Source: a virus (taxonomy: Duplodnaviria > Caudoviricetes). From it: DNA of 38,465 nt. Location: IMG/VR virus record IMGVR_UViG_3300044983_000082, positions 1-38,465 of that record; one strand, written 5' to 3'. Positions 428-38,464 of the stretch are shown here, piece after piece (positions within the stretch are counted from its first letter, which is position 1; each line of letters opens with the position of its first letter). The translations under genes were made by a program, and so were the position numbers. The notes under the pieces are model-generated. The model was given only the letters and a program-made list of their open reading frames with translations, searched no databases and was not told the origin of the DNA.

Positions 428-1296
428 GAATCAGCGTAAAGCAGATCAACCAATTCGGCGCACTGCAGCGCCCCAGCATCGGCGGCTGCCCGCGGGCGTG
501 GGGGTTCTCCTACCTCGACCGCATCAAGCTCGAATGGCTCGCGCCGCCGTTGGTTGACGGCATCAAGTTCCACGCCTGCATGGGCTGGCTGGTCGCATCC
601 GACAAGATGCCGCCACCGGGGCAACTGCAGGAGAACATCGCGCTGACCGAAGCCGAAGTTCTACCCGAAGGGCACTACGGCCGTATGTGCCGCAGCGCTC
701 TGATTCACCTCCCGCGCCGGGACTGGGCCCTGACGCCCCAAGCGAGAGCGATGGGACTCGGCTGGAAGGTCGAGGGCGAGTACCTGTTCCCCTGGAAGAC
801 GGAGCCGCACGGCGTCGTTGCAGAGATCGATCTGCGCCCCGACGTGCACAGCGACAACGTGGGGCCGATGGTCTTCATCGACTGGAAGTCGACCAGCGAC
901 AAGCGCTATGCCCTGAAGTCTCTGCAGGAGGACGTGCAGGCGAACCTGTACGCCTACGGCCTGATGCGGAACTTCGGCAAGGTGTGCGTCTCTGCTCGCT
1001 GGGTCTACGTCAACAAGAAGACCTACGAGAGCTGGCCGGTGGATCACGAGTTCAAGCTCCACGAAACGACCGAGTGGATGCATAAAAATGTTGACGCGAC
1101 CATCGAACTGATTCATACCTTCAGAGACGCGAAGCTGAAAGCCCTGGACCTGCCAGGCGACATCGAAGCGTGCGGCGGAGTCGGCCGCTTCTGCGACCAC
1201 AAGGATCGCTGTCTGATCGGCCCCGTTGGGGCTCTCCCCTCTCGACTCGTAACCCTGCAAGAGATCGTTCGATACAAGGAAGGAACCAAAACATGA
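424..1296 (+). CDS. Cas4-like / RecB-family PD-(D/E)XK exonuclease
   Basis: N-terminal CPR, EIDL, IDWKS, QANLY and C-terminal C-x6-C-x5-C Fe-S-type cysteines. Confidence 0.85.
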   Translation: MRISVKQINQFGALQRPSIGGCPRAWGFSYLDRIKLEWLAPPLVDGIKFHACMGWLVASDKMPPPGQLQENIALTEAEVLPEGHYGRMCRSALIHLPRRDWALTPQARAMGLGWKVEGEYLFPWKTEPHGVVAEIDLRPDVHSDNVGPMVFIDWKSTSDKRYALKSLQEDVQANLYAYGLMRNFGKVCVSARWVYVNKKTYESWPVDHEFKLHETTEWMHKNVDATIELIHTFRDAKLKALDLPGDIEACGGVGRFCDHKDRCLIGPVGALPSRLVTLQEIVRYKEGTKT

Positions 1297-6142: not shown

Positions 6143-8146
6143 ATGGATCCCGTCGCGCTAGACTTCGAGACTTGTTGCTTCGCGCCGGGAATGATGGCGC
6201 CCCCGATTGTGTGCGCCAGCACCTATCACCCCCAGGACGGTCTGCGCTTGTGGACCACGGAGGAGCTGCCCGGCATGTGCGAGCGGCTGTTCTCCGAGCC
6301 CGCGCCCGTCCTGGGGCACGGCTTCGCTTACGACGCCTGCTGCATGCTGGAGGAGATGCCGGAGAAGATCCGCAGGCTGCTCTGGGAGAAGTACGAGCGC
6401 GACGAGATGCGCGACTCTCTGACGACGGAGCGGATCATCGAGATCGGCACCGGCGTCCGAGGCAAGCTGGCGCTGGACGAGCTGGCGCGTCGCTACGGCA
6501 TCTCGGTCCAGAAGTCGATTGTCCGGACTGACTTCGGCCGCTACTACATGCAGCCGATCACGGCGTACTCCAAGGAGCACCGGCGCTACATGGGGGGCGA
6601 CGCCGCCGAGCTGTATACGTTGTTCAAACGGCAGTGGAACCGCGGCATCGTCTCCCAGCGCGACCTCGGCGACCTGATGCGGGGCGACCTGTGGCTCCGC
6701 CTGAGCTCGAACTACGGCATCCGGACGGACCCGTCGCGCGTGCACGAGCTGGAGCGCTCGACGCAGGAGGAGGTGGACGAGCTGACCTGGGTCGCCCAGT
6801 GCCTCGACGGCGACGGCGTGCCCCTGCCCGACGTGGCCCCGCTGATGCGCGGGAACATCTGGACCAAGGAGGGCGCCCCCAGCGACCCGACGAAGTGGTT
6901 CAGCCGCGACATGAAAGCCATTAAAGTGCGCGTTTCGGCTGCTTATGGCCAGAATAATATCCCCCGGACCGACAGCTGGGACGCCGGGCTCGACCGCCAG
7001 GGCCGCCAGACGGACCCCCGAGGTATCCCGGGCACAGAGGAGTTCGACCCCCTGTGGGCCATCAGCTGCAGCAAGATTGCGCTGGACGAGAGCGGCGACT
7101 TCCTGCTGGAGCAGCTCTCCCGCCTCGGCGAGCTACTGGCCGTCCGGAACAAGGACGTCAAGATGTTGAAGGGCGGAGTCTACGCCCCGATCCACACGCG
7201 CTACGGCTACGCGGCCACGACCAGGACGACCAGCTCGGCCCCGAACATTCAGAACTTCCGCAAGAAGCGCGGCATCCGAGAATGCCTCATGCCGCGCGAG
7301 GGCTGCTGCTTCATCGAGACCGACTACCCGTCGCTGGAGCTGTTCACCCTCGCCCAGGTCTGCGCCTGGAAGCTGAACCGCTTCGATCTCGTCAAGAACA
7401 TGAACGAGGGCAAGGACTATCACGCCGTGATCGGTGCGGGCATCCTCGGGACGACCTACGAGGACGTGATGGCGCGCAAGTCGTCCGACCCCCGCGTGAA
7501 GGCTGCTCGCGACTGCGGGAAGTATGGGAACTATGGCTTGTGCGGGTACATGACCGACCCGGCAACCTTCGCGCTCTACGTGAACCTGGGCTCGCGCACA
7601 GACGAGAACCCGCACGGCGAGCGCTGGACCGTCCAGCAGGCTGCCGAGGTCATGGATCTGTGGAAGCGAAACGCGACTGATCCTGTCGCCTTCCTGAAGT
7701 ACGTCGACACCCTGAAGAACTCGGTCGGCCTCTATGACGTCGAGATCCCTGGTACTACTATTGTGCGCCGTGGTTGCACTCGAACTGCGGCAGCGAACAC
7801 GCACTTCCAAGGCCTGGGCGCGACTGTCGCGCGGCGTGCGGGCTGGCGCATCGCTCGCCGGCAGTACATCGAGCGCGACATGCCGAGCCGGACGGTCGTG
7901 TTCTGCCATGATGCGTTCTTGGCGGAATGCAAGATCGACGACCGGGACATCGTGGCGGCCATCCAGGAGGAAGAGATGGCCAACGCGCTGAACGAGATCT
8001 GCCCGGCGATGCGCATCGTCCCAGAGCTGAAGGCCCGGGGGCTGAAGAACGTCACCGTCATTGACAGCGCCGCCCAGGACCACTATTCTAAGTTTGCCAA
8101 GTCGAAGCGCGACAGCGCAGGAAGGCTAATCGTCTGCAATGTCTGA
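6143..8146 (+). CDS. Family A DNA polymerase with 3'-5' exonuclease domain
   Basis: ExoI LDFET, ExoII GHGFAYD, ExoIII YMGGD, TTRTTSSAPNIQN, motif A DYPSLE, motif B RDCGKYGNYG, motif C CHDA. Confidence 0.95.
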   Translation: MDPVALDFETCCFAPGMMAPPIVCASTYHPQDGLRLWTTEELPGMCERLFSEPAPVLGHGFAYDACCMLEEMPEKIRRLLWEKYERDEMRDSLTTERIIEIGTGVRGKLALDELARRYGISVQKSIVRTDFGRYYMQPITAYSKEHRRYMGGDAAELYTLFKRQWNRGIVSQRDLGDLMRGDLWLRLSSNYGIRTDPSRVHELERSTQEEVDELTWVAQCLDGDGVPLPDVAPLMRGNIWTKEGAPSDPTKWFSRDMKAIKVRVSAAYGQNNIPRTDSWDAGLDRQGRQTDPRGIPGTEEFDPLWAISCSKIALDESGDFLLEQLSRLGELLAVRNKDVKMLKGGVYAPIHTRYGYAATTRTTSSAPNIQNFRKKRGIRECLMPREGCCFIETDYPSLELFTLAQVCAWKLNRFDLVKNMNEGKDYHAVIGAGILGTTYEDVMARKSSDPRVKAARDCGKYGNYGLCGYMTDPATFALYVNLGSRTDENPHGERWTVQQAAEVMDLWKRNATDPVAFLKYVDTLKNSVGLYDVEIPGTTIVRRGCTRTAAANTHFQGLGATVARRAGWRIARRQYIERDMPSRTVVFCHDAFLAECKIDDRDIVAAIQEEEMANALNEICPAMRIVPELKARGLKNVTVIDSAAQDHYSKFAKSKRDSAGRLIVCNV

Positions 8147-8693
8147 CCCTATCCCCTACGTTCACGCAGCCCCCGCCCGCATCCCGCAAGAGGACGCACG
8201 GCGCAAGGGCGCTCCCATGTATCGCGGCCTGCTCGGGTACTTCCCGGCGGCCCTGTTTGAGGTCGCCGAGCACAGCCGCAAGTCGAACGACAAGCACAAC
8301 CCCGGCGAGGAGATCCACTGGGCCCGCGGCAAGTCGGCAGATCACGAGGACTGCATCGTCCGCCACCTGATCGACGCCGGCAAGCGCGGGCAGAAGGATC
8401 GGAAGTATCACCTCCGAGCCCTCGCCTGGCGCGCGCTGGCGATGCTGCAGGAGGAGTGCGAGGCCGAGGGCGCCGAGCCGGGCGTGTCGTCGGTGTTCCC
8501 GGACGAGCCCGCGCCGCCGAGCCCAGCCGCTCGGAAGTTCGGCGTCTTCTTCACCGGCCTAGCAACCGACACCAAGCAGGACCCCGCGGCGCGCAGCCAG
8601 GAGTTCCCGGACGACTACGAGAGCCGCGAGGCTGCGCTGGCGGCCGTGCCGGAGTACCTGCGCGAGCAGTATAGCATCTCGGGGCTGCCATGA
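8139..8693 (+). CDS. DUF5664-type dATP/dGTP diphosphohydrolase-like protein
   Basis: RK..P...L..FP.AL.EVA.....KH...W......D...RHL...HL..LAWRAL pattern of this family. Confidence 0.7.
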   Translation: MSDPIPYVHAAPARIPQEDARRKGAPMYRGLLGYFPAALFEVAEHSRKSNDKHNPGEEIHWARGKSADHEDCIVRHLIDAGKRGQKDRKYHLRALAWRALAMLQEECEAEGAEPGVSSVFPDEPAPPSPAARKFGVFFTGLATDTKQDPAARSQEFPDDYESREAALAAVPEYLREQYSISGLP

Positions 8694-9310
8694 CCCAAGT
8701 CAAAACGATCCTGGTCGACTGCGACGGCGTGCTGTCCGACATGACCGGCTCTGTCCTGGCGCTCGCGCGCCGGCAGGGCATCTACGCCACGCCGGAGGAC
8801 GTCACGAGCTGGGACTATGGCCAGGCCATCGGCTGGAACGACTGGCGCTGCTTCGTCGACAAGGCCGTCGGCGGGGACGAGTTCTGCTACCGGATGCAGC
8901 CATACGACGGGGCGTTTCCCTTCCTGCGCCGCCTGGAGGCGCTGTGCGGCGTCGAGAACGTCCTGATCTGCACGAGCCCCTGGACGGGCAAGGAAGGGCC
9001 CGCCTGGGTCGAGCAAAGGCTATGCTGGCTCCGGGACGTGATGCAGATCGGGCCGAAGCGGATCATCACCTGCTCGCGCAAGGAGCTCGTGACCGGCTAC
9101 CTGATCGACGACAGCCCCGAGCACCTGGCTGAGCGCCGCTACGGCGACAACCATTGGGCGCCCTGGGCCGGCTCCGAAGGATTCTGCGTTGCGCGCCCGT
9201 ACAACACCGAGTACACTGGCCAGCGAGGCAGCTACAACGACTGTCTGAAGCTTCTGTTCCACTCATTCTACCGCCCGGAGCTAGCCGGCGCAGTAAGGAA
9301 TCTCCCATGA
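8690..9310 (+). CDS. 5'(3')-deoxyribonucleotidase, HAD superfamily (NT5C-like)
   Basis: VDCDGVLSD motif I, ICTSP motif II, LIDDSP motif IV, RPYN. Confidence 0.85.
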   Translation: MTQVKTILVDCDGVLSDMTGSVLALARRQGIYATPEDVTSWDYGQAIGWNDWRCFVDKAVGGDEFCYRMQPYDGAFPFLRRLEALCGVENVLICTSPWTGKEGPAWVEQRLCWLRDVMQIGPKRIITCSRKELVTGYLIDDSPEHLAERRYGDNHWAPWAGSEGFCVARPYNTEYTGQRGSYNDCLKLLFHSFYRPELAGAVRNLP

Positions 9311-9567
9311 CCCCAGCATTCAAGGACGGGCTCGGCAACCTGATCGCGGTCGGCGACTTCATCTCGTACGTGTGGCGACACAGCTCCTCGTGCGGCTTCG
9401 CGCTCGGCAAGGTCCTGGAGCTGTGCGAGGACGGCCAGATCAAGGTCGTCGGGCTCGACTACCGCGGCAAGAAGCAGCGGCCGGCGAAGCTTCAGCGCCT
9501 CGACCGCGTGATCGTGCTGCCCTACACCCTTCTGCCGGCGGCCGCGCTGGACGAGCTGACGTCGTGA
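9307..9567 (+). CDS. Hypothetical protein, 86 aa
   Basis: TAAGGA SD, ATGA overlap; KD.LG..I.VGD.I.Y start typical of small beta-barrel phage proteins. Confidence 0.7.
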   Translation: MTPAFKDGLGNLIAVGDFISYVWRHSSSCGFALGKVLELCEDGQIKVVGLDYRGKKQRPAKLQRLDRVIVLPYTLLPAAALDELTS

Positions 9568-9767
9568 AGGCCTGCCCGTTCTGCGGCTCACGCGCTCGCG
9601 TGCAGAGCTACAAGAAGTGCTGGGCGCAGGCCTGGGCCCGGGTCATGTGCACCGAGAAGGCGTGCGCAGCCCGCGGCCCGACGGTGCGCGCCCACATCAA
9701 GAACGACGGCGACGCCTACGACGCCCTGCGCGCTGAAGCCGTGCGAGCGTGGGAGGCCCGCCAGTGA
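9564..9767 (+). CDS. Lar-like (restriction alleviation) zinc-ribbon protein
   Basis: GTG start; KACPFCG...VMC....C.ARGP...A..AW pattern. Confidence 0.65.
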   Translation: MKACPFCGSRARVQSYKKCWAQAWARVMCTEKACAARGPTVRAHIKNDGDAYDALRAEAVRAWEARQ

Positions 9768-10279: not shown

Positions 10280-11033
10280 ACGCGCGCTGCTGTTCCCCGA
10301 CCTGCACGCCCCCTATCACGACGAGAGGGCTTTCAGCTGTGCGCTGGCGGCCGTGAAGATCTGGCGACCCGAGGTCGTGATCGTGCTCGGCGACTTCGCC
10401 GACTTCTACAAGGTCTCCAGCTTCAATCTGGACCCGCGCCGCAAGCTCTCGTTCGCTGACGAGATCCGCATCGCTCGGAAGTGCCGCGCTCGGCTCGACG
10501 CTGCGTGCAAGACTGCCGGATGCCGCGACAAGCGGTTCCTGCAGGGCAACCACGAGGTCAGGCTGGACACCTACCTCTCGAAGCGAGCGCCCGAGATGGT
10601 CGAGGTCCTGGACGAGCAGGGCGTGGACTGGCAGGGCCTCCTACAGCTCGACCAGAGCGGCTGGGCCGTCACCCCCTACAAGCGCTCGATCCAGCTCGGG
10701 AAGCTGCGCATCAGCCACGACGTGGGGCGCGCGGGCGTCTACAGCGCTCGCCAGTCGCAGCTCGACATGGGCTGCTCGGTGGCCTTCGGGCACACCCACC
10801 GGCTTGCCGCGCACTACCAGGGAACCATCGACGGCCCGCGGCACGTTGGCCTGACCTGCGGCTGGCTGGGCGACCCGGAGTTCATTGACTACAACCACCG
10901 CGACCGCGTGCAGCGCGATTCGATCCACGGCTTTTGCACCGTCCACGTCTTGCCAGATGGCGAGTTCTGGGCTAACCTGATCCCTATCATCGACGGCCGC
11001 TGCATCGTTGACGGCCAACTAATCAAAGGGTAA
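10266..11033 (+). CDS. Calcineurin-like metallophosphoesterase
   Basis: PDLH, LGDFAD, GNHE, SHD, FGHTH motifs; TTG start with GGAGG SD. Confidence 0.9.
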   Translation: MAKSKRALLFPDLHAPYHDERAFSCALAAVKIWRPEVVIVLGDFADFYKVSSFNLDPRRKLSFADEIRIARKCRARLDAACKTAGCRDKRFLQGNHEVRLDTYLSKRAPEMVEVLDEQGVDWQGLLQLDQSGWAVTPYKRSIQLGKLRISHDVGRAGVYSARQSQLDMGCSVAFGHTHRLAAHYQGTIDGPRHVGLTCGWLGDPEFIDYNHRDRVQRDSIHGFCTVHVLPDGEFWANLIPIIDGRCIVDGQLIKG

Positions 11034-13273: not shown

Positions 13274-14005
13274 TCAGTCCTCCAGCGCGAATTGGCAGTC
13301 TTCCGAGGGCGTGAGCCGGTAGAAGATGCCGAAGCGGCGGAAGCGGCAGCTCGTGATGGGGTTCAAGCAGATCAGGTCGCCCTTGCGCTGCTTCGGCGTC
13401 CAGCGGACCGGCTTGGTGTGCACGAAAGGTTCCTCCCGGACCCCTTCCTTGCGCTCGCCCCAACGTTGCGTACCCTTGGTACGCTTGAAGGTGCCGCCGC
13501 CCGCGTCCAGGCAGCGCTCCAGCACGACCCGAACGATGCCGTCCGAGCCGCCGTCCACCGGCATGCCGTCCGACAGCATGTCCTCGGGAAGCAGGAGCCC
13601 GCCGTACATGTGGGCCTCGAACTCCTCCCGGGCTCGCTTCGTCAGCACCCAGTCATTGACCGCGCGCAGGCCTTCGTCCGGCTTGCCCAGGTTCGTGACG
13701 ACTGCAGCGATGCTGCGCATCTCGGCCAGAAGGCAGATCTCCTTCTTCAGGGCCACGACCTTCGACATGCTGAACAGCGGCAGGGCCACGATGTCGCCCG
13801 GCTTCAGCGCAGTCATGTCGGGGCAGTCGGCCGTTCCTTCACCGACGGCCACGACCTCGCCGATGCAGGTCCGGTCGTGCCGCTCGCCGGTCATGACGCC
13901 AGGCCCGATCAGGGCGCTGTCCGGAGTGATGATCGTCGAGCTGTTCCAGGCCTGCTCCAGGTCCTCGCGCGGGCGTAGCGTTACGTAGCTGTTGAACGGT
14001 CGCAT
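13274..14005 (-). CDS. Tandem double-GroES (Cpn10-Cpn10) co-chaperonin
   Basis: Domain 1 MRPFNSYV..IITPDSA..GEVVAVGEG..LKPGDIV..SIAAVV; domain 2 LRAVNDWVLTKR..GGLLLP..LDAGGG..RKGDLI..SEDCQFALE. Confidence 0.85.
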   Translation of the reverse strand: MRPFNSYVTLRPREDLEQAWNSSTIITPDSALIGPGVMTGERHDRTCIGEVVAVGEGTADCPDMTALKPGDIVALPLFSMSKVVALKKEICLLAEMRSIAAVVTNLGKPDEGLRAVNDWVLTKRAREEFEAHMYGGLLLPEDMLSDGMPVDGGSDGIVRVVLERCLDAGGGTFKRTKGTQRWGERKEGVREEPFVHTKPVRWTPKQRKGDLICLNPITSCRFRRFGIFYRLTPSEDCQFALED

Positions 14006-33171: not shown

Positions 33172-33657
33172 TTATGGCCTGGGCACCGCAGCTAAGCCCG
33201 TCTCGAAAGTTCTGAAGTCGACGCCGCCCCCACAATCGGTTCTGCGGCGCGCGACAACCCCGAAGGCACGTCGGACGCAAGCCTTGATGTCGGGGCAAGC
33301 CTCGGGGCAGCCAACGCCCAGCAACCACCCGATGCACAGGTCGCCGCCCGAGCCGATGGCCGAGAGCCCGGGAGCCTCGGACCAGACGCGCTGGTCCTGC
33401 ACTTTGAACACGTGGCCGTCTGGAGTCATCACGAGCGCCACGCTGTCCTTGTCCACGTGCTCGATCAGGTCCTCGACCAGCTGGGCGCCCTTGCGGATGG
33501 CCCTGCGGACGTCCAGCGTCGAGGTAGCGTTGCCGGCAGCGGCCGCGATCAGGTGCGGGTTCTTGGCGATCTTCACGAGCGAGCCCTTGGCCCCGTCGGC
33601 CTCGGTCACGCAGCGGTCAGCTGCCATCCAGCCTTTGCCGGCAACGATGCACGTCAT
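33172..33657 (-). CDS. HslV / proteasome beta-subunit-like Ntn-hydrolase peptidase
   Basis: M-T-CIVA (N-terminal Thr nucleophile), MAADRCVT, VKI, AAAG, AIGSGG, D..CGG; GGAGGT SD. Confidence 0.8.
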   Translation of the reverse strand: MTCIVAGKGWMAADRCVTEADGAKGSLVKIAKNPHLIAAAAGNATSTLDVRRAIRKGAQLVEDLIEHVDKDSVALVMTPDGHVFKVQDQRVWSEAPGLSAIGSGGDLCIGWLLGVGCPEACPDIKACVRRAFGVVARRRTDCGGGVDFRTFETGLAAVPRP

Positions 33658-33662
33658 AGCGA

Positions 33663-33854
33663 TTACCTCCGGCCGAGCTTGCGGCCCACGTGTCGACGGA
33701 CGGCCCAGAGCCAGAACCCGACGGTCGTGTTCGTGTATTGCAGCCAGGAGACGAACTCCCAGAGCAGGAAAAGAACGAGCAGTCCAGTTGCAGCCATGCA
33801 GTGACCTTCCTTGAAGAGAAGACCCACAGCGAGCCCGGTTAGCCCCGGCGCCAT
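33663..33854 (-). CDS. Small membrane protein, holin candidate
   Basis: Hydrophobic GLLVLFLLWEFVSWL, basic C-terminus RRHVGRKLGRR; near endolysin. Confidence 0.55.
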   Translation of the reverse strand: MAPGLTGLAVGLLFKEGHCMAATGLLVLFLLWEFVSWLQYTNTTVGFWLWAVRRHVGRKLGRR

Positions 33855-34309
33855 GACAGTCTCCTCGGTTGTTCGACCTCCGATGCAGGCACTCTGATCG
33901 GCGCTTCGTAGGTGCCGAACGGAATGTCCGTGAACAGGCCCGAGTACATGATGTCTCGGAACTCGCGCTCCTTCTGCTTCAGCAGCATCATGAACGGCGA
34001 CGCGCGCATCGACAGCTCATGCACGCGGTCGAGCGGCTTGTACCAGCGCTTCATCCAGACGTGTGTGTTGAAGTCGCTGTTCGCGCGGTCGCTCCACGGT
34101 CGCAGCTCGCAGTCGAGCCCCAGCACGTTGTAGAGCTCCCACTGCGTGGGCGGAAGCGACTCCTCGTCCAGGCTGTCGCCCGGGTCGAGCTCAGGCTTCA
34201 GACCCAGGGCCGAGCAACGGCGGGCTAGCCACGCCTCCCGCCAGACTCTTGGATGGTCCTTCGTCGAGGTCTCGGACGAGGTAGGTGAATTGGAAGAGAG
34301 CTCGGCCAT
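33839..34309 (-). CDS. Hypothetical protein (start uncertain)
   Basis: GGAG SD, 156 aa ORF in the operon direction. Confidence 0.6.
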   Translation of the reverse strand: MAELSSNSPTSSETSTKDHPRVWREAWLARRCSALGLKPELDPGDSLDEESLPPTQWELYNVLGLDCELRPWSDRANSDFNTHVWMKRWYKPLDRVHELSMRASPFMMLLKQKEREFRDIMYSGLFTDIPFGTYEAPIRVPASEVEQPRRLSWRRG

Positions 34310-34386: not shown

Positions 34387-34827
34387 CTAGCGCGCCCCGA
34401 GGAAGTGTGCAAGCTCTCTCGTGCGTCGAGCTGTCTGTCCGTCAACGACCGTCTTCTTGCCCTTGATCGTGACCTTGTTCCAGCGCGTGAACTCCAGCGC
34501 CGCACCGAGCTTGTCCTGGTCGTTCAGCTTGTCGAGCAGGGTCGAGGTCGCGAATGCGCCGGCACCGATGTTGAAGATCAGGCAGACCAGCGCCTCGTGC
34601 TCGCACTGACGCAGGGAGCGCGTCACGTGCCGCAGGATCGCCTCCTCGGCGACCTCGACGTCCTGGTCCAGAAGCGAGTCAGCCTGGCCGCTCGTGATGA
34701 TCTGGCCTTCCTTGACGCCGCGCGTGTGCCCGTAGCCGATGGTCCAGACGCCCGCATCGTCCTGATAGGCCTTCAGCCTCAGGCCCTCGAACCCCTTCAG
34801 CATGTCCAGAGCGAAGTCGGTCAACAT
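34387..34827 (-). CDS. Endolysin, GH24 lysozyme (muramidase)
   Basis: FEGLRLKAYQDDAGVWTIGYGHT (E-x8-D-x5-T), FNIGAGAF, RWNK; AAGGAG SD. Confidence 0.95.
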   Translation of the reverse strand: MLTDFALDMLKGFEGLRLKAYQDDAGVWTIGYGHTRGVKEGQIITSGQADSLLDQDVEVAEEAILRHVTRSLRQCEHEALVCLIFNIGAGAFATSTLLDKLNDQDKLGAALEFTRWNKVTIKGKKTVVDGQTARRTRELAHFLGAR

Positions 34828-34912
34828 GGGCGTCTCCTTGGGGGCGCGATCCAGCCGTGTCTCGGGTCCCGCACCCAGCGGACTCCGTGCTCGTAGTGGA
34901 ACTCGGTCACGT

Positions 34913-34981
34913 TGGCACCCAGCCCAGGAGTCGAACCCGGCTGCTCGGCTTTTGGAGGGCCAGCAGGCGCCTGCACCGGAT
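34913..34981 (-). tRNA. Atypical tRNA-Trp(CCA), 69 nt, D-arm reduced
   Basis: Acceptor ATCCGGT/GCTGGGT, loop CTCCAAA, T-arm CCGGG-TTCGACT-CCTGG, G73, encoded CCA; only 12 nt in the D region. Confidence 0.7.
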
Positions 34982-34984
34982 AGT

Positions 34985-35060
34985 TGGTCGTCCCGGGCGG
35001 GCTCGAACCGCCGACCTGGCGCATATCAGGCGCCTGCTCTACCGACTGAGCTACGGGACA
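34985..35060 (-). tRNA. tRNA-Ile(GAT)
   Basis: 76-nt cloverleaf; GGCGC-CTGATAT-GCGCC, GGCGG-TTCGAGC-CCGCC, A73, CCA. Confidence 0.95.
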
Positions 35061-35064
35061 GAGG

Positions 35065-35126
35065 GGGTTGCGGTGCCGGGAGTGTGTGCCCGATCTTACG
35101 AGTGGCTCGCTTGCCACTACACCGCG
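35065..35126 (-). ncRNA. Anticodon-less tRNA-like element
   Basis: CGCGGTG/CACCGCA-A-CCC acceptor-like stem, AGTGGC/GCCACT hairpin, TCGGG/CCCGG arm. Confidence 0.45.
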
Positions 35127-35134
35127 CCTTCGAT

Positions 35135-35210
35135 TGGCTGCAGGGGCAGGGCTCGAACCTGCCACCCTCACGTTAACAGCGTGCCGCTCTACCGACTGAG
35201 CTACCCTGCA
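35135..35210 (-). tRNA. tRNA-Asn(GTT)
   Basis: 76-nt cloverleaf; loop CTGTTAA, U1-A72, G73, CCA. Confidence 0.95.
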
Positions 35211-35215
35211 ATGAT

Positions 35216-35289
35216 TGGTTCGGTCTCCTCGACTTGAACGAGGATTGGCGGGTTCAGAGCCCGGTGTCCTACCATTGGACGAAGACCGA
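35216..35289 (-). tRNA. tRNA-Gln(CTG)
   Basis: 74-nt cloverleaf; loop CTCTGAA, U1-A72, T-arm CCTCG-TTCAAGT-CGAGG, CCA. Confidence 0.92.
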
Positions 35290-35294
35290 GTGAT

Positions 35295-35437
35295 TAGGGC
35301 GCCCGCTCCGGCAGGCCTCGGCTGCTTGGTGCTCCCTGACCGGTCGAGCTGGCAGTACGCCACCAGCGCGCAGGGAGGCGATGCATGCTGTGCATCTGCC
35401 GGAGCGAACTCGGCGCCGTTTTGCAGGCGGCGCCTAG
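35295..35437 (-). ncRNA. ~140-nt multi-helix RNA with SRP helix-8-like motif
   Basis: 11-bp CGCTCCGGCAG/CTGCCGGAGCG stem, several internal hairpins, ACC-GGTCAGG-N7-AAGCAGCC-GAGGC; fills the gap between two tRNAs. Confidence 0.6.
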
Positions 35438-35440
35438 AGT

Positions 35441-35533
35441 TGGGGGCACACGACGGGATTTGAACCCGTGAGCCGGGTGTACCGGCTGGCAGACTCACAT
35501 TCTGCTGACATAAGCCGCTCGTCCACATGGCCC
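35441..35533 (-). tRNA. Atypical class II tRNA with His anticodon (GTG), 93 nt
   Basis: G-1:C73, GCAGA-ATGTGAG-TCTGC, variable arm AGCCGG-TACAC-CCGGCT, ACGGG-TTCAAAT-CCCGT, CCA; one bulged T in acceptor. Confidence 0.8.
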
Positions 35534-35566
35534 ATAACCTTGAAAGTGTTGGTTTTTTAGGTGGTT

Positions 35567-35593
35567 TGCCAACGACCACTCGGCCATACCCGT
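35567..35593 (-). pseudogene. 5' fragment of a Ser/Leu-type tRNA
   Basis: ACGGGTA-TG-GCC-GAGTGGTCGTT-GGC-A D-arm with no anticodon stem or T-arm downstream. Confidence 0.45.
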
Positions 35594-35603
35594 GCCTTAC
35601 AGG

Positions 35604-35670
35604 AAGCGGAATCAGGACTCGAACCCGACAGCCCTGGCTTATGAGGCCCGGCCGGCGCCATGCACCCGCT
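35604..35670 (-). tRNA. Atypical tRNA with CAT anticodon (Met or Ile2), D-arm reduced, followed by CCT
   Basis: Acceptor AGCGGGT/TTCCGCT, loop CTCATAA, T-arm TCGGG-TTCGAGT-CCTGA; 13 nt in the D region. Confidence 0.65.
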
Positions 35671-35724
35671 GAAAACGTCCCCGGTGTTTACTCACGGTCC
35701 GGGGGAACCGGCCCTCATACTTTC

Positions 35725-35753
35725 AGTATAGCCTAGGCAACGACGGGTTGCCA
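35725..35753 (-). promoter_or_regulatory. Promoter TGGCAA-N17-TATACT for the tRNA/ncRNA cluster
   Basis: - strand reads TGGCAA cccgtcgttgcctaggc TATACT, about 55 nt upstream of the first tRNA. Confidence 0.7.
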
Positions 35754-35996
35754 ACCCTTTTCGACATCGGTGCACCAACTCGCAGTCTTGGGTGCACGTC
35801 GGTCCAGCTCGTCTCGTGCAGCCCAGGCCTGGTAGCTCTGCCAGTCGGCCTGGCTCCGGCCTTCGGCTACGCCTCGCAGCTCGTGATGCTTCAGCCCGAG
35901 GAGCTTGGGGTCCCAGCGATAGGGCGCGAGCAGGATCAGGTTGCCGCGGGCGTCGAGCTTGCGCGGGATAGCGTTCAGCCGTTCGTAGCTTCTCAT
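35733..35996 (-). CDS. Hypothetical protein, 87 aa
   Basis: AGGAGA SD, ATG 35996 (MRSYERLNAIPRKLD...). Confidence 0.7.
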   Translation of the reverse strand: MRSYERLNAIPRKLDARGNLILLAPYRWDPKLLGLKHHELRGVAEGRSQADWQSYQAWAARDELDRRAPKTASWCTDVEKGWQPVVA

Positions 35997-37030: not shown

Positions 37031-38464
37031 TCAGGCATGGCCGAGGCGGACAAGCTCGATCACCCGGTGCGCGGCTGCGGGCGGGACAGTGCCGGCCGCC
37101 GGGATGTAGTTGGTCCCGTGCGTACTGACGATCAGCCCGGCCTGTGCGAGCGCGCCAACGACCTGAACCGCGCGACGCTTGGTCCGGCCGGTCGTCCCAG
37201 GAGGAGCGCCGGCCGCCGTGAGCAGGTCGGCATAGCTCGCGCTCCCGAGTCGGTGGATGTGGGTCAGCATGTCGTATTGCATCTGCTGGCCGGGCGAGAC
37301 CTCCAGCGTGTCGTCCTGGATGGTCTGGGCGTCAACCAGAACGATGCGCGCGCCCGTCAGGCGCCCTGAGCCATCGACATCGCGGTCCCACTGCGTGGCG
37401 AACTCCTCCGGGCCGCGTCCGTCGTGCTCCTCGACCTTGCGCCCCAGAGACCATAGGCGCGGGGCGTCCGTGATCGGCCTGCCGTCGGCGTCCTTGGCGA
37501 GATTCATGTTCCACATGGCGCCGCAGGCTGCCGCGATGGCCTGAGAGCCAAAGAACCCCGGCTTGCCCTTCGGTGAGTGCATCGCCCAGAGCCACGTGCC
37601 GCCCAGGTTCTTGCTGTACCAGAGCGGCTCTGCCGCCTCGGGGCTGTTCATGTCGAGGCCTGCAGCGATGGCGAACAGGGAGTCCAGGATCACGAGCTTG
37701 TAGCCGCCGCGCTGGGCCTCCTCGACGATGGGGGCGAGCCCAGCAGGATCGAAGGCCTGGTACTTATTGACGCACTTCAGGCGTCCAGGCCACACCTTGA
37801 TCGGGAGCTCCCTGGCGTCGATGCCCATGCCTCGGGCCAACATCTGGTAGCGCCAGCGCGTGGCGTACTCGCCCGCGTCCGTCGAGACGTGGAGCACCGG
37901 CCCCTGGTCTGCGGCGAACTTCCCGAAGATCGGGCGCCCGGTAGCAACGGCGAGCGCCATCGCCTGCAGGCTCCAGGTCTTGCCGGCGTTCGGCTCGGCG
38001 ACCACAGCCGCTGGGCGTCCCGGGCAGAGCTGCAGATCCTGGCACAACCACTGGATCGGCGGCAGCGGTGCCATGAGGTCGGCCCAGGTCAACCAACCGG
38101 GGGTCGCAGGCTTGGCCACTTCGGGCGCTGGGTCCGGTGCCTTCTCCAGGCGCGTATACGGCTCCAGGATGTTCCGAGGCTCGGGCCACATGGACAGCTC
38201 GGCGGCCACAGCTGGGAGCCCACGCAGGGCGTCCAGCGCCTCTAGGCTGTGGCGTTTTCCGCAGTGCTGGTGAGCGCAGACGAAGTGCCCCATCCGGTCC
38301 TCGGTGTCGTCCACGAAGGTGCCGCTCGTGTTCTTGCCGCTGTGCTCGTGCGACCAAGGGCAGGTGACGACCAGCTTCTGACCGTCCACGCGCTGAACCC
38401 GGCCGGCCGCTACGAACGCAGCCCCGACCTTGGTCGCTCGCGCGGAGCTGCCAACGTAGGTCTC
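37031..38464 (-). CDS. 5'-truncated primase-associated RepA/AAA_25-type replicative helicase
   Basis: Frame open to the window edge; Zn finger CPW...H...C.H.HC, Walker A AEPNAGKT, Walker B LVILDS, MHSPK, GSQAI; possible C-terminal winged helix. Confidence 0.88.
   Translation of the reverse strand, partial: ETYVGSSARATKVGAAFVAAGRVQRVDGQKLVVTCPWSHEHSGKNTSGTFVDDTEDRMGHFVCAHQHCGKRHSLEALDALRGLPAVAAELSMWPEPRNILEPYTRLEKAPDPAPEVAKPATPGWLTWADLMAPLPPIQWLCQDLQLCPGRPAAVVAEPNAGKTWSLQAMALAVATGRPIFGKFAADQGPVLHVSTDAGEYATRWRYQMLARGMGIDARELPIKVWPGRLKCVNKYQAFDPAGLAPIVEEAQRGGYKLVILDSLFAIAAGLDMNSPEAAEPLWYSKNLGGTWLWAMHSPKGKPGFFGSQAIAAACGAMWNMNLAKDADGRPITDAPRLWSLGRKVEEHDGRGPEEFATQWDRDVDGSGRLTGARIVLVDAQTIQDDTLEVSPGQQMQYDMLTHIHRLGSASYADLLTAAGAPPGTTGRTKRRAVQVVGALAQAGLIVSTHGTNYIPAAGTVPPAAAHRVIELVRLGHA

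Follow-up and report, generated by a model that had tools for sequence, protein, structure and literature searches.

The tRNA gene cluster of phage T4 yields, besides its tRNAs, the stable RNAs species 1 and 2 (rnaC, rnaD), and it is among the described systems closest to the one considered here, a cassette of tRNAs and folded RNAs on the minus strand (34913-35754) of the uncultured Caudoviricetes record IMGVR_UViG_3300044983_000082, the whole of which (38,465 bases) was analyzed and is called the window. Both hold unexplained stable RNAs among tRNA genes that are likely freed by tRNA processing, but the window cassette belongs to a podovirus-like clade of ~41 kb, its RNA families are unrelated to those of T4 and several of its tRNAs are themselves reshaped. 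A second likeness is to the polycistrons of irregular tRNAs and allo-tRNAs described by Mukai et al. (PMC5389517), with their soil metagenomic strings, 8/4 branches, variable (V) arms on non-Ser anticodons, G-1 species and toxin-antitoxin link. The 8/4 tRNA-His of that paper lacks G-1 and has A73, whereas the one here has G-1:C73, a 5-base-pair (bp) T stem and a V arm, and neither D-arm-shrunk CAU and Trp tRNAs nor pseudoknots are among its results sections compared here. A third likeness is to defence-resistant phage tRNAs, variants proposed or shown to replace a cleaved host tRNA (PMC11464382, PMC10264068); those reported there carry point changes in the anticodon arm, whereas in the window cassette it is the body of the tRNA that is rebuilt. 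Operons in which tRNAs accompany unexplained stable RNAs are a known kind, as are polycistrons of irregular tRNAs.

We read the window cassette tentatively, at somewhat below even confidence, as a phage operon of normal and reshaped tRNAs and folded RNAs that is likely cut by host tRNA-processing enzymes and likely sustains translation against tRNA-targeting defences. The evidence consists of the anatomy of its units, pairing that is conserved between relatives and a unit order that is shuffled from one relative to the next. Sequence comparisons support structural selection on the pseudoknot PK, the rod-shaped RNA U4, the small RNA U1 and the initiator-like tRNA iMet*. These are four of the seven odd units, the ones best testable, and in them the random decay without compensatory change that the initial annotation had named as fatal to its own proposal of a replacement or decoy cassette is not what is seen. 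Rfam 15 holds no family that matches the three covarying RNA families (PK, U4, U1) or the D-stub tRNAs, and neither group is described in the open-access literature searched, outside of which lie the supplementary drawings of PMC5389517, which could hold similar tRNAs.

Layout and relatives of the cassette

The comparison set has seven members: the window; G001, ~94% identical to it across the region and with the entire cassette; L011 (47%), L012 (40%) and G002, recovered by primase alignment; G005, recovered by the PK pattern, with a terminase 71% identical to that of the window; and G006, a complete genome recovered by terminase alignment (60% identity). Locus L022 lies in G005 and L008 in G002, while X4, X5, X7 and X8 are sequencing runs. 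Four distant primase or terminase relatives (G003, G004, G007 and L013), fragments of no more than 30% identity, were left out of the clade count, and the searches run on these fragments found no tRNA. The window cassette consists of a sigma-70-type promoter-like site and 11 units, namely canonical tRNAs for Gln, Asn and Ile, a V-arm tRNA-His, D-arm-shrunk CAU and Trp tRNAs, a tRNA top half that has no anticodon arm and four non-tRNA RNAs, listed here in transcription order with lengths in nucleotides (nt):

35725..35754, minus strand: sigma-70-type promoter-like site found by a scanner (18-nt spacer); similar sites head the cassettes of L011, L012, G002 and G005
35671..35716, minus strand: U1, a 46-nt structured RNA with a covarying central helix and a predicted H-type pseudoknot; homolog at L011:7276-7322
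35601..35670, minus strand: iMet*, an initiator-like tRNA(CAU) with a shrunken D arm (ARAGORN at ps95); counterparts in L011, G002 and G005
35580..35597, minus strand: variable leader of PK, with four adjacent changes (35587-35590) in X7; a similar leader stands ahead of the L012 knot
35548..35579, minus strand: PK, a 32-nt H-type pseudoknot (five sequences, covariation)
35441..35533, minus strand: tRNA-His(GUG) with a 6-bp variable arm (ARAGORN; below the Rfam cut-off)
35412..35434, minus strand: U3, a 23-nt hairpin (sequence and fold)
35301..35411, minus strand: U4, a 111-nt rod-shaped RNA with internal loops (pair-keeping changes against G001; related RNA at L022:693-808)
35216..35289, minus strand: canonical tRNA-Gln(CUG) (ARAGORN; Rfam 56.3 bits)
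35135..35210, minus strand: canonical tRNA-Asn(GUU) (ARAGORN; Rfam 61.2 bits)
35065..35126, minus strand: U5, a tRNA top-half look-alike and the weakest unit (fold; one loop change in G001)
34985..35060, minus strand: canonical tRNA-Ile(GAU) (ARAGORN; Rfam 62.4 bits)
34913..34981, minus strand: Trp*, a 69-nt tRNA(CCA) with a shrunken D arm (ARAGORN at ps95, which misplaces its 5′ end)

This layout agrees in large part with the initial annotation, whose tRNA order (CAU, His, Gln, Asn, Ile, Trp) is correct and whose promoter, given as TGGCAA-N17-TATACT, is the same site with its spacer shifted by one base. Promoter-like sites number two in 3.3 kb where 0.2 are expected. The spacers between units are, 5′ to 3′, 0 (U1 abuts iMet*), 3, 14, 6 (before U3), 0 (after U3), 11, 5, 8, 4 and 3 nt, so that the earlier statement that most units lie 3-8 nt apart holds for six of ten gaps. 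Two elements had been placed rightly and interpreted otherwise: the supposed tRNA 5′ fragment is the variable leader, which by its changes in X7 is not conserved as the end of a tRNA and which runs into the then-overlooked PK, and the supposed 140-nt RNA is likely two modules, the hairpin U3 and the rod U4, a rod-like RNA standing without the hairpin in G005. U1 was absent from the earlier list.

As to which units annotation tools miss, ARAGORN at its default setting detects four of the six tRNAs; the D-reduced CAU and Trp tRNAs, which had been claimed from the letters, are real and appear only at -ps95. Rfam model RF00005 at its gathering score detects three (Gln, Asn and Ile, 56-62 bits), all cloverleaves with CCA ends; tRNA-His scores 27.5 bits against a cut-off of 29, and iMet*, Trp* and U5 have no match at E<=10. 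U1, PK, U3, U4 and U5 have no credible Rfam match at E up to 10, and ARAGORN reports no transfer-messenger RNA (tmRNA) in the window. No terminator is predicted on the cassette strand, and the transcript may therefore continue into the endolysin gene. A 29-codon open reading frame (ORF; 34821-34910, minus strand) begins two bases past Trp* and overlaps the endolysin start; it is unchanged in G001 over 34828-34912.

The search for syntenic cassettes in metagenomic phages, another check proposed at the outset, succeeded in that a promoter-headed cassette stands at the matching genome position in six of the seven clade members (window, G001, G002, G005, L011 and L012), with its units shuffled. 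The order is CAU tRNA, PK, U1, His in L011; a degenerate unit, PK, His and a permuted tRNA-like RNA in L012; PK and CAU tRNA in G002; and PK, odd units, CAU tRNA, Gln, Pro and a U4-like RNA in G005. In the X7 variant, 34809-35249 is swapped for 468 other letters. In the complete genome G006, Rfam detects no tRNA, and the non-coding stretch found at the corresponding place is a different one. What these comparisons support is a cassette that is conserved and structurally selected, and no single fixed system, order and content being variable and G006 having no cassette.

Some further observations were made at these loci. The G006 stretch (C1 ~10550-10850, minus strand) contains a number of GNRA hairpins and perhaps a small A-rich pseudoknot, and G005 has three further well-folding RNAs at L022:180-240, 385-445 and 600-665 (plus strand; z -3.2, -4.0 and -4.2) that have no credible Rfam match.

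Pseudoknot PK and the other folded RNAs

The five distinct PK sequences align without gaps, with 19 of the 32 letters invariant, loops included. All pairing cells are paired (50/50), four of the ten pairs are changed on both sides, the covariation score is reached by none of 500 shuffles and slid controls pair at 20-50%; G002 and G005 are close, so the set represents about four independent lineages. A relaxed descriptor gives 0.05 matches per 38.5 kb in 60 composition-matched controls. Among 185,579 prokaryote genomes the exact pattern matches once, at a site that does not form helix 2 and appears antisense in a coding gene; in viral contigs it has nine matches, three of them valid and six failing a helix or sitting in apparent coding DNA. 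Over 62 sources (343 kb) the PK model finds no other copy with a full score. Each record has one copy with variable flanks, and in all five distinct cassettes it lies 4-14 nt ahead of a tRNA or stable RNA.

This position, together with the adjoining of U1 to a tRNA in both cassettes that hold it (2/2), speaks for a reading in which the tRNAs simply raise translation and the pseudoknots and hairpins act as punctuation: knots free of ligand, with no decoy role, that would mark RNA ends, or shield them, while processing takes place. The pairing of PK uridine 5 with A15 would suit such a knot, shutting the pocket as adenine does in the empty preQ1-I pocket (PMC7641330). The invariance of 19 letters including loops is more than a plain barrier requires, however, and punctuation leaves the rebuilt tRNA bodies and the 111-nt rod unexplained; we consider it rather unlikely.

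The geometry of PK is that of the preQ1-I aptamer (RF00522), likewise a 32-33-nt H-type knot with U and A pocket bases, a G-C ceiling pair and an A-rich loop, whose pocket is made up of C15, U6 and A29 beneath G11-C30 (PMC7641330). Pocket positions U6, A29 and G11-C30 and the loop lengths map onto PK, which has an A-rich loop and a 3-4-nt middle loop, but the specificity C (C15, ahead of the 3′ strand of stem 1) is A in all five sequences, an A that can pair with the pocket U, RF00522 gives no match on PK in four records and PK precedes stable RNAs rather than forming an mRNA leader. A preQ1-I riboswitch was rejected on these three grounds. The mapped pocket would also fit a variant aptamer for another metabolite, a sensor or sponge possibly linked to the queuosine modification of the His and Asn tRNAs, and His directly follows PK in two of five cassettes. 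In the other three PK is ahead of other units, and no expression platform or queuosine gene is nearby; with the altered specificity base and the failed match also against it, this variant seems very improbable.

Small H-type knots with an A-minor loop, a conserved stem 1 and a covarying stem 2 also occur in the type III antitoxins (tenpI, cptI, toxI) and in pseudo-ToxI, a phage RNA that mimics an antitoxin (PMC3475682), and PK and its like could accordingly be orphan mimics of the tenpI/cptI kind that inhibit a host endoribonuclease toxin. In the tenpI material compared (PMC12283969, PMC13682666) the RNA is likewise an H-type knot in which stem 1 is conserved and stem 2 covaries, with a 1-nt loop and an A run, the pattern of PK. 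E. coli tenpI rows share with the window PK an A run with CC after it and GTGG/CCAC as the core of stem 1. PK has the H-type knot and A-rich loop of these antitoxins and not their tandem repeats upstream of a toxin gene; it is 32 nt long with an extra middle loop of 3-4 nt, as against tenpI repeats averaging 51 nt (PMC3401426), and the tenpI rows appear to pair stem 2 further downstream. The middle-loop motif is absent from the four supplementary files searched, toxin contacts run through the flanks whereas PK is single-copy with variable flanks, and none of the six phage records has a ToxN gene (PF13958; the CptN and TenpN models were not searched). Antitoxin mimicry is, on balance, improbable. 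A separate predicted A-rich H-type pseudoknot, with 4-bp and 8-bp helices that both vary between loci, follows His at L011:7405-7456 and L012:3099-3131 (plus strand) and was not found in the window.

Between U1 and its L011 homolog the flanks and loop are kept nearly letter for letter and four of six central pairs are changed on both sides; a 4-bp knot helix is invariant, through which U1 is predicted to form a second H-type knot, and this alignment lends the closing helix little support. U4 is the unit most changed between the window and G001 (17 of 111 positions), and its 33 pairs show six double and one single pair-keeping change and none broken. A further independent double change, at 35374/35335, occurs in X8 (one contig, depth 4.2). 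The G005 RNA at L022:693-808 shares two U4 motifs just inside a 14-bp closing helix as well as a third block and is likely, by these motifs, a homolog. U3 is unchanged in G001, and its A-rich loop holds a Cys-anticodon-like heptamer; a role as Cys-anticodon mimic is unsupported, the A-rich hairpins of L011 and L012 having no such 7-nt loop.

Known RNAs were compared with these units; 6S RNA, signal recognition particle RNA and YrlA Y RNA were rejected. U4 is not 6S RNA, RF00013 having no match in six records at E<=10 and U4 being 111 nt with a partly paired centre as against a long rod with an open central bubble. Small signal recognition particle RNA has an invariant symmetric loop in helix 8; the look-alike letters of U4 vary and covary with the upstream strand, and there is no Rfam match. 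The theta ribozyme, which is hepatitis delta virus-like, is a nested double pseudoknot with a catalytic C and a cut site at the tRNA 3′ end (PMC10879173); it has no Rfam match here, and no tRNA in the window cassette is directly followed by any of the six start sites that a loose descriptor, which also matches tRNA arms, gives there. YrlA Y RNAs have a permuted T arm-acceptor stem-D arm (T-AS-D) module, a 5′ GNCGAA motif and a Ro60 gene within 4 kb (PMC4201824), whereas the cassette has no GNCGAA motif, its best RF02553 score (10-15 bits, at the Gln-Asn junction) is far from the cut-off of 69 and none of the six records has a TROVE gene. The YrlA order (closing helix, T arm, capped acceptor stem, D arm) is seen in the permuted tRNA-like RNA directly after His at L012:3012-3105 (plus strand), which has no 5′ Ro-binding motif and no Rfam match, and whose first eight letters are those of the window U4.

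Reshaped tRNAs and the tRNA top half

Bacterial initiator tRNAs have a C1xA72 mismatch, A73 and three G-C pairs closing the anticodon stem. None of these is found in iMet*, which has A1-U72, U73, C31-G39, a D arm reduced to a tetraloop stub and a genome-encoded CCU end, together with the CAU anticodon and initiator-type acceptor pairs. Its three counterparts have U1-A72 and U73 and keep the three anticodon-stem G-C pairs. Common to all four (window, L011, G002, G005) are the initiator-type acceptor (pairs 2-5), CAU and U73; their D arms differ, being tiny in the window and L011 and long, with an added V arm, in G002 and G005. All four also deviate from the usual A38-C39 step, a VapC cut site, with C38 in three and G39 in the window. 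In X7, as read by hand on one contig (depth 5.9), iMet* ends in an encoded CCA, and its T stem shows two double changes and one single change that keep pairing.

Two side observations concern CAU tRNAs. The X4 and X5 contigs (27 and 43 kb, high depth) share window 35615-35652 of iMet* with a short D region of their own and a CCA end, pointing to another abundant carrier of a D-reduced tRNA. In G002 an insert at L008:7236-7735, which holds a 105-amino-acid (aa) ORF with no family, is flanked by a direct repeat of the 3′ end of the CAU tRNA, and this reshaped gene seems to act as an integration site.

Trp* has the same D stub design as iMet*, G73 and an encoded CCA, and its two changes against G001 are pair-keeping or in loops. 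The tRNA-His, class II as first described, carries a GUG anticodon, a 6-bp V arm and G-1:C73, its T stem is 5 bp long and a single base is bulged out of its acceptor stem; its anticodon and G-1:C73 are those of a tRNA-His. Its changes in X7, one variant contig, are structure-keeping, lying in loops or rearranging the acceptor bulge. It was rejected as an (8/4) tRNA-His of alphaproteobacterial phages, which have a 4-bp T stem, no G-1 and A73 or U73 (PMC5389517).

Long variable arms are an identity element for seryl-tRNA synthetase, and allo-tRNAs that put Ser at other codons arrest growth (PMC5389517). In this clade V arms have been added to two tRNAs, His in the window and CAU in G002 and G005, which would suit reshaped tRNAs that act as agents of host takeover or mistranslation, such as a V-arm tRNA-His charged with serine. 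Yet G-1:C73 is retained, the His tRNAs of L011 and L012 have no long variable arm, and miscoded CAC or AUG would hit major codons of the phage itself, and we give such agents little credence. The six cassette anticodons read the major codons of the phage; this match to its commonest codons argues against a supply of tRNAs for rare codons, which is rejected from phage codon usage alone.

U5 has a C1xA72 end, A73, an 8/4-type acceptor/T branch, a 6-bp D hairpin resembling that of the G002 CAU tRNA, an 8-nt linker in place of the anticodon arm, a non-canonical T loop and a CCC end. It keeps an anticodon-loop-like heptamer one letter off that of iMet*, and we infer that it derived from an initiator-like tRNA after loss of the anticodon stem. 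The sequence claimed earlier as an anticodon-less element is real; its fold taken alone is not significant (z -1.55), and against G001 it shows one loop change and no covariation. A tmRNA identity was also considered. TLD (tRNA-like domain)-only tmRNAs have an alanine acceptor with G3-U70, a stemless D loop and a canonical T loop. U5 has none of these, and RF02544 has no match in six records, which rejects this assignment. Like these tmRNAs and the YrlA Y RNAs (RF02553), U5 is a tRNA mimic that has no anticodon arm and occurs in a phage; it differs in that it is not permuted, has no Ro-binding motif, no TROVE gene and no G3-U70 and matches no model.

U5, Trp* and U3 have no homolog in 332 kb of other loci, and X7 lacks the U5/Trp* part of the cassette. 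These units could be decaying or recently rearranged tRNA remnants between selected genes, the cassette then being partly functional; the absence of covariation, z score, broken T loop and CCC end of U5 fit this, and its heptamer is what would be expected of a deletion product. However, the three changes seen in U5, Trp* and U3 keep pairing or sit in loops, Trp* has the D arm design of iMet* and an encoded CCA, and decay cannot cover PK, U1, U4 or iMet*. Trp* and U5 may be decaying, but as an account of all three remnants this reading has a low probability.

Carrier phages, proposed counter-defence role and meaning

The window record is 89% complete and represents an uncultured, podovirus-like genome of ~43 kb with genes for DNA polymerase A, a helicase, a primase-type ATPase, terminase and endolysin and a weak match to a podovirus major capsid protein. 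Its terminase has no match among 50,697 INPHARED phage records and 57 uncultured homologs of 59-91% identity, many on contigs near 41 kb; a terminase scan of prokaryote genome contigs confirmed none of 50 candidates, and hence there is no host clue. Single-sequence and scaffold-protein scans of viral contigs gave almost no matches, exact patterns for His and iMet* matched G001 alone, and in INPHARED neither the cassette nor U3+U4, U1-PK or His matched anything beyond generic tRNA arms and chance similarities. A conserved 133-aa protein upstream of the cassette has no usable Atlas match.

Elsewhere in the window, a 156-aa ORF (33839-34309, minus strand) is 25-27% identical to the first ~93 residues of the capsid protein region of G002, G005 and G006 and is possibly a partial capsid gene duplicate. 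The primase-type ATPase (37031-38389, minus strand) has just 50% identity to its G001 counterpart, against 80-100% for the neighbouring genes, pointing to a swapped replication gene. Accessory genes (8139-9767, 13274-14005, 33172-33657) encode a dATP/dGTP diphosphohydrolase-like protein, a 5′ nucleotidase, a Lar-like restriction alleviation protein, a GroES-like domain and an HslV-family peptidase.

For the counter-defence operon that we tentatively favour, the following course may be proposed. Host RNA polymerase would make a single transcript, and RNase P and 3′ trimming at the tRNA-shaped units would free the RNAs in between. The Gln, Asn, Ile and His tRNAs would replenish host tRNAs destroyed by a defence nuclease. 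In iMet* and Trp* the acceptor stem, anticodon loop and CCA would be kept and the D arm, elbow and edge of the anticodon stem rebuilt, which would preserve synthetase identity yet alter the shape read by a toxin. Left over as stable by-products, the pseudoknots, the rod and the top half would act as decoys for host proteins. Module swapping, as in the X7 replacement, fits an arms race and is counted for this reading. There are precedents in the T5 tRNA-Lys variant that defeats PARIS (PMC11464382), in phage tRNAs with anticodon-loop changes (PMC10264068) and in pseudo-ToxI.

Several points weigh against it. U73, required in an initiator-like pattern, is found with a Met call at 38 of 44 loci, in unrelated phages, and since such tRNAs are common there U73 is no sign of this system. 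The anticodon loops of Gln, Asn and Trp* are canonical, the D-reduced tRNAs may fail on bacterial ribosomes, some irregular tRNAs having been charged but left unused in translation (PMC5389517), and the missing homologs of U5, U3 and Trp* count here as well. Of the 35 differences between the window and G001 cassettes 29 are clustered in U4-Gln-Asn, and the identity of U1 to U3, and elsewhere outside that block, may therefore reflect recent recombination. Protein-family searches found no phage protein partner for the cassette RNAs, and the reading names no host, target nuclease or cultured relative. It overlaps in part with the other readings, because different units may follow different ones.

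A bolder form would be an all-RNA counter-defence kit, a ~800-base operon of nuclease-proof, working tRNAs, their bodies rebuilt about fixed identity elements and at 69-70 nt far below the bacterial norm, and of swappable decoys, including a ligand-free preQ1-I scaffold, each directed against a different RNA-binding defence protein; we regard this as speculative and rather unlikely. Standard annotation detects three or four of the 11 units, and phage tRNA arrays may hence hide many reshaped tRNAs and small RNAs. The cassette, ~800 bases behind a sigma-70-type promoter, is clonable as it stands, and the natural 69-70-nt tRNAs would be useful as orthogonal tRNA scaffolds. Two questions become testable, namely what role the unexplained stable RNAs have in phage tRNA operons and whether D-arm-shrunk tRNAs may serve in bacterial translation while escaping tRNA-targeting defences.

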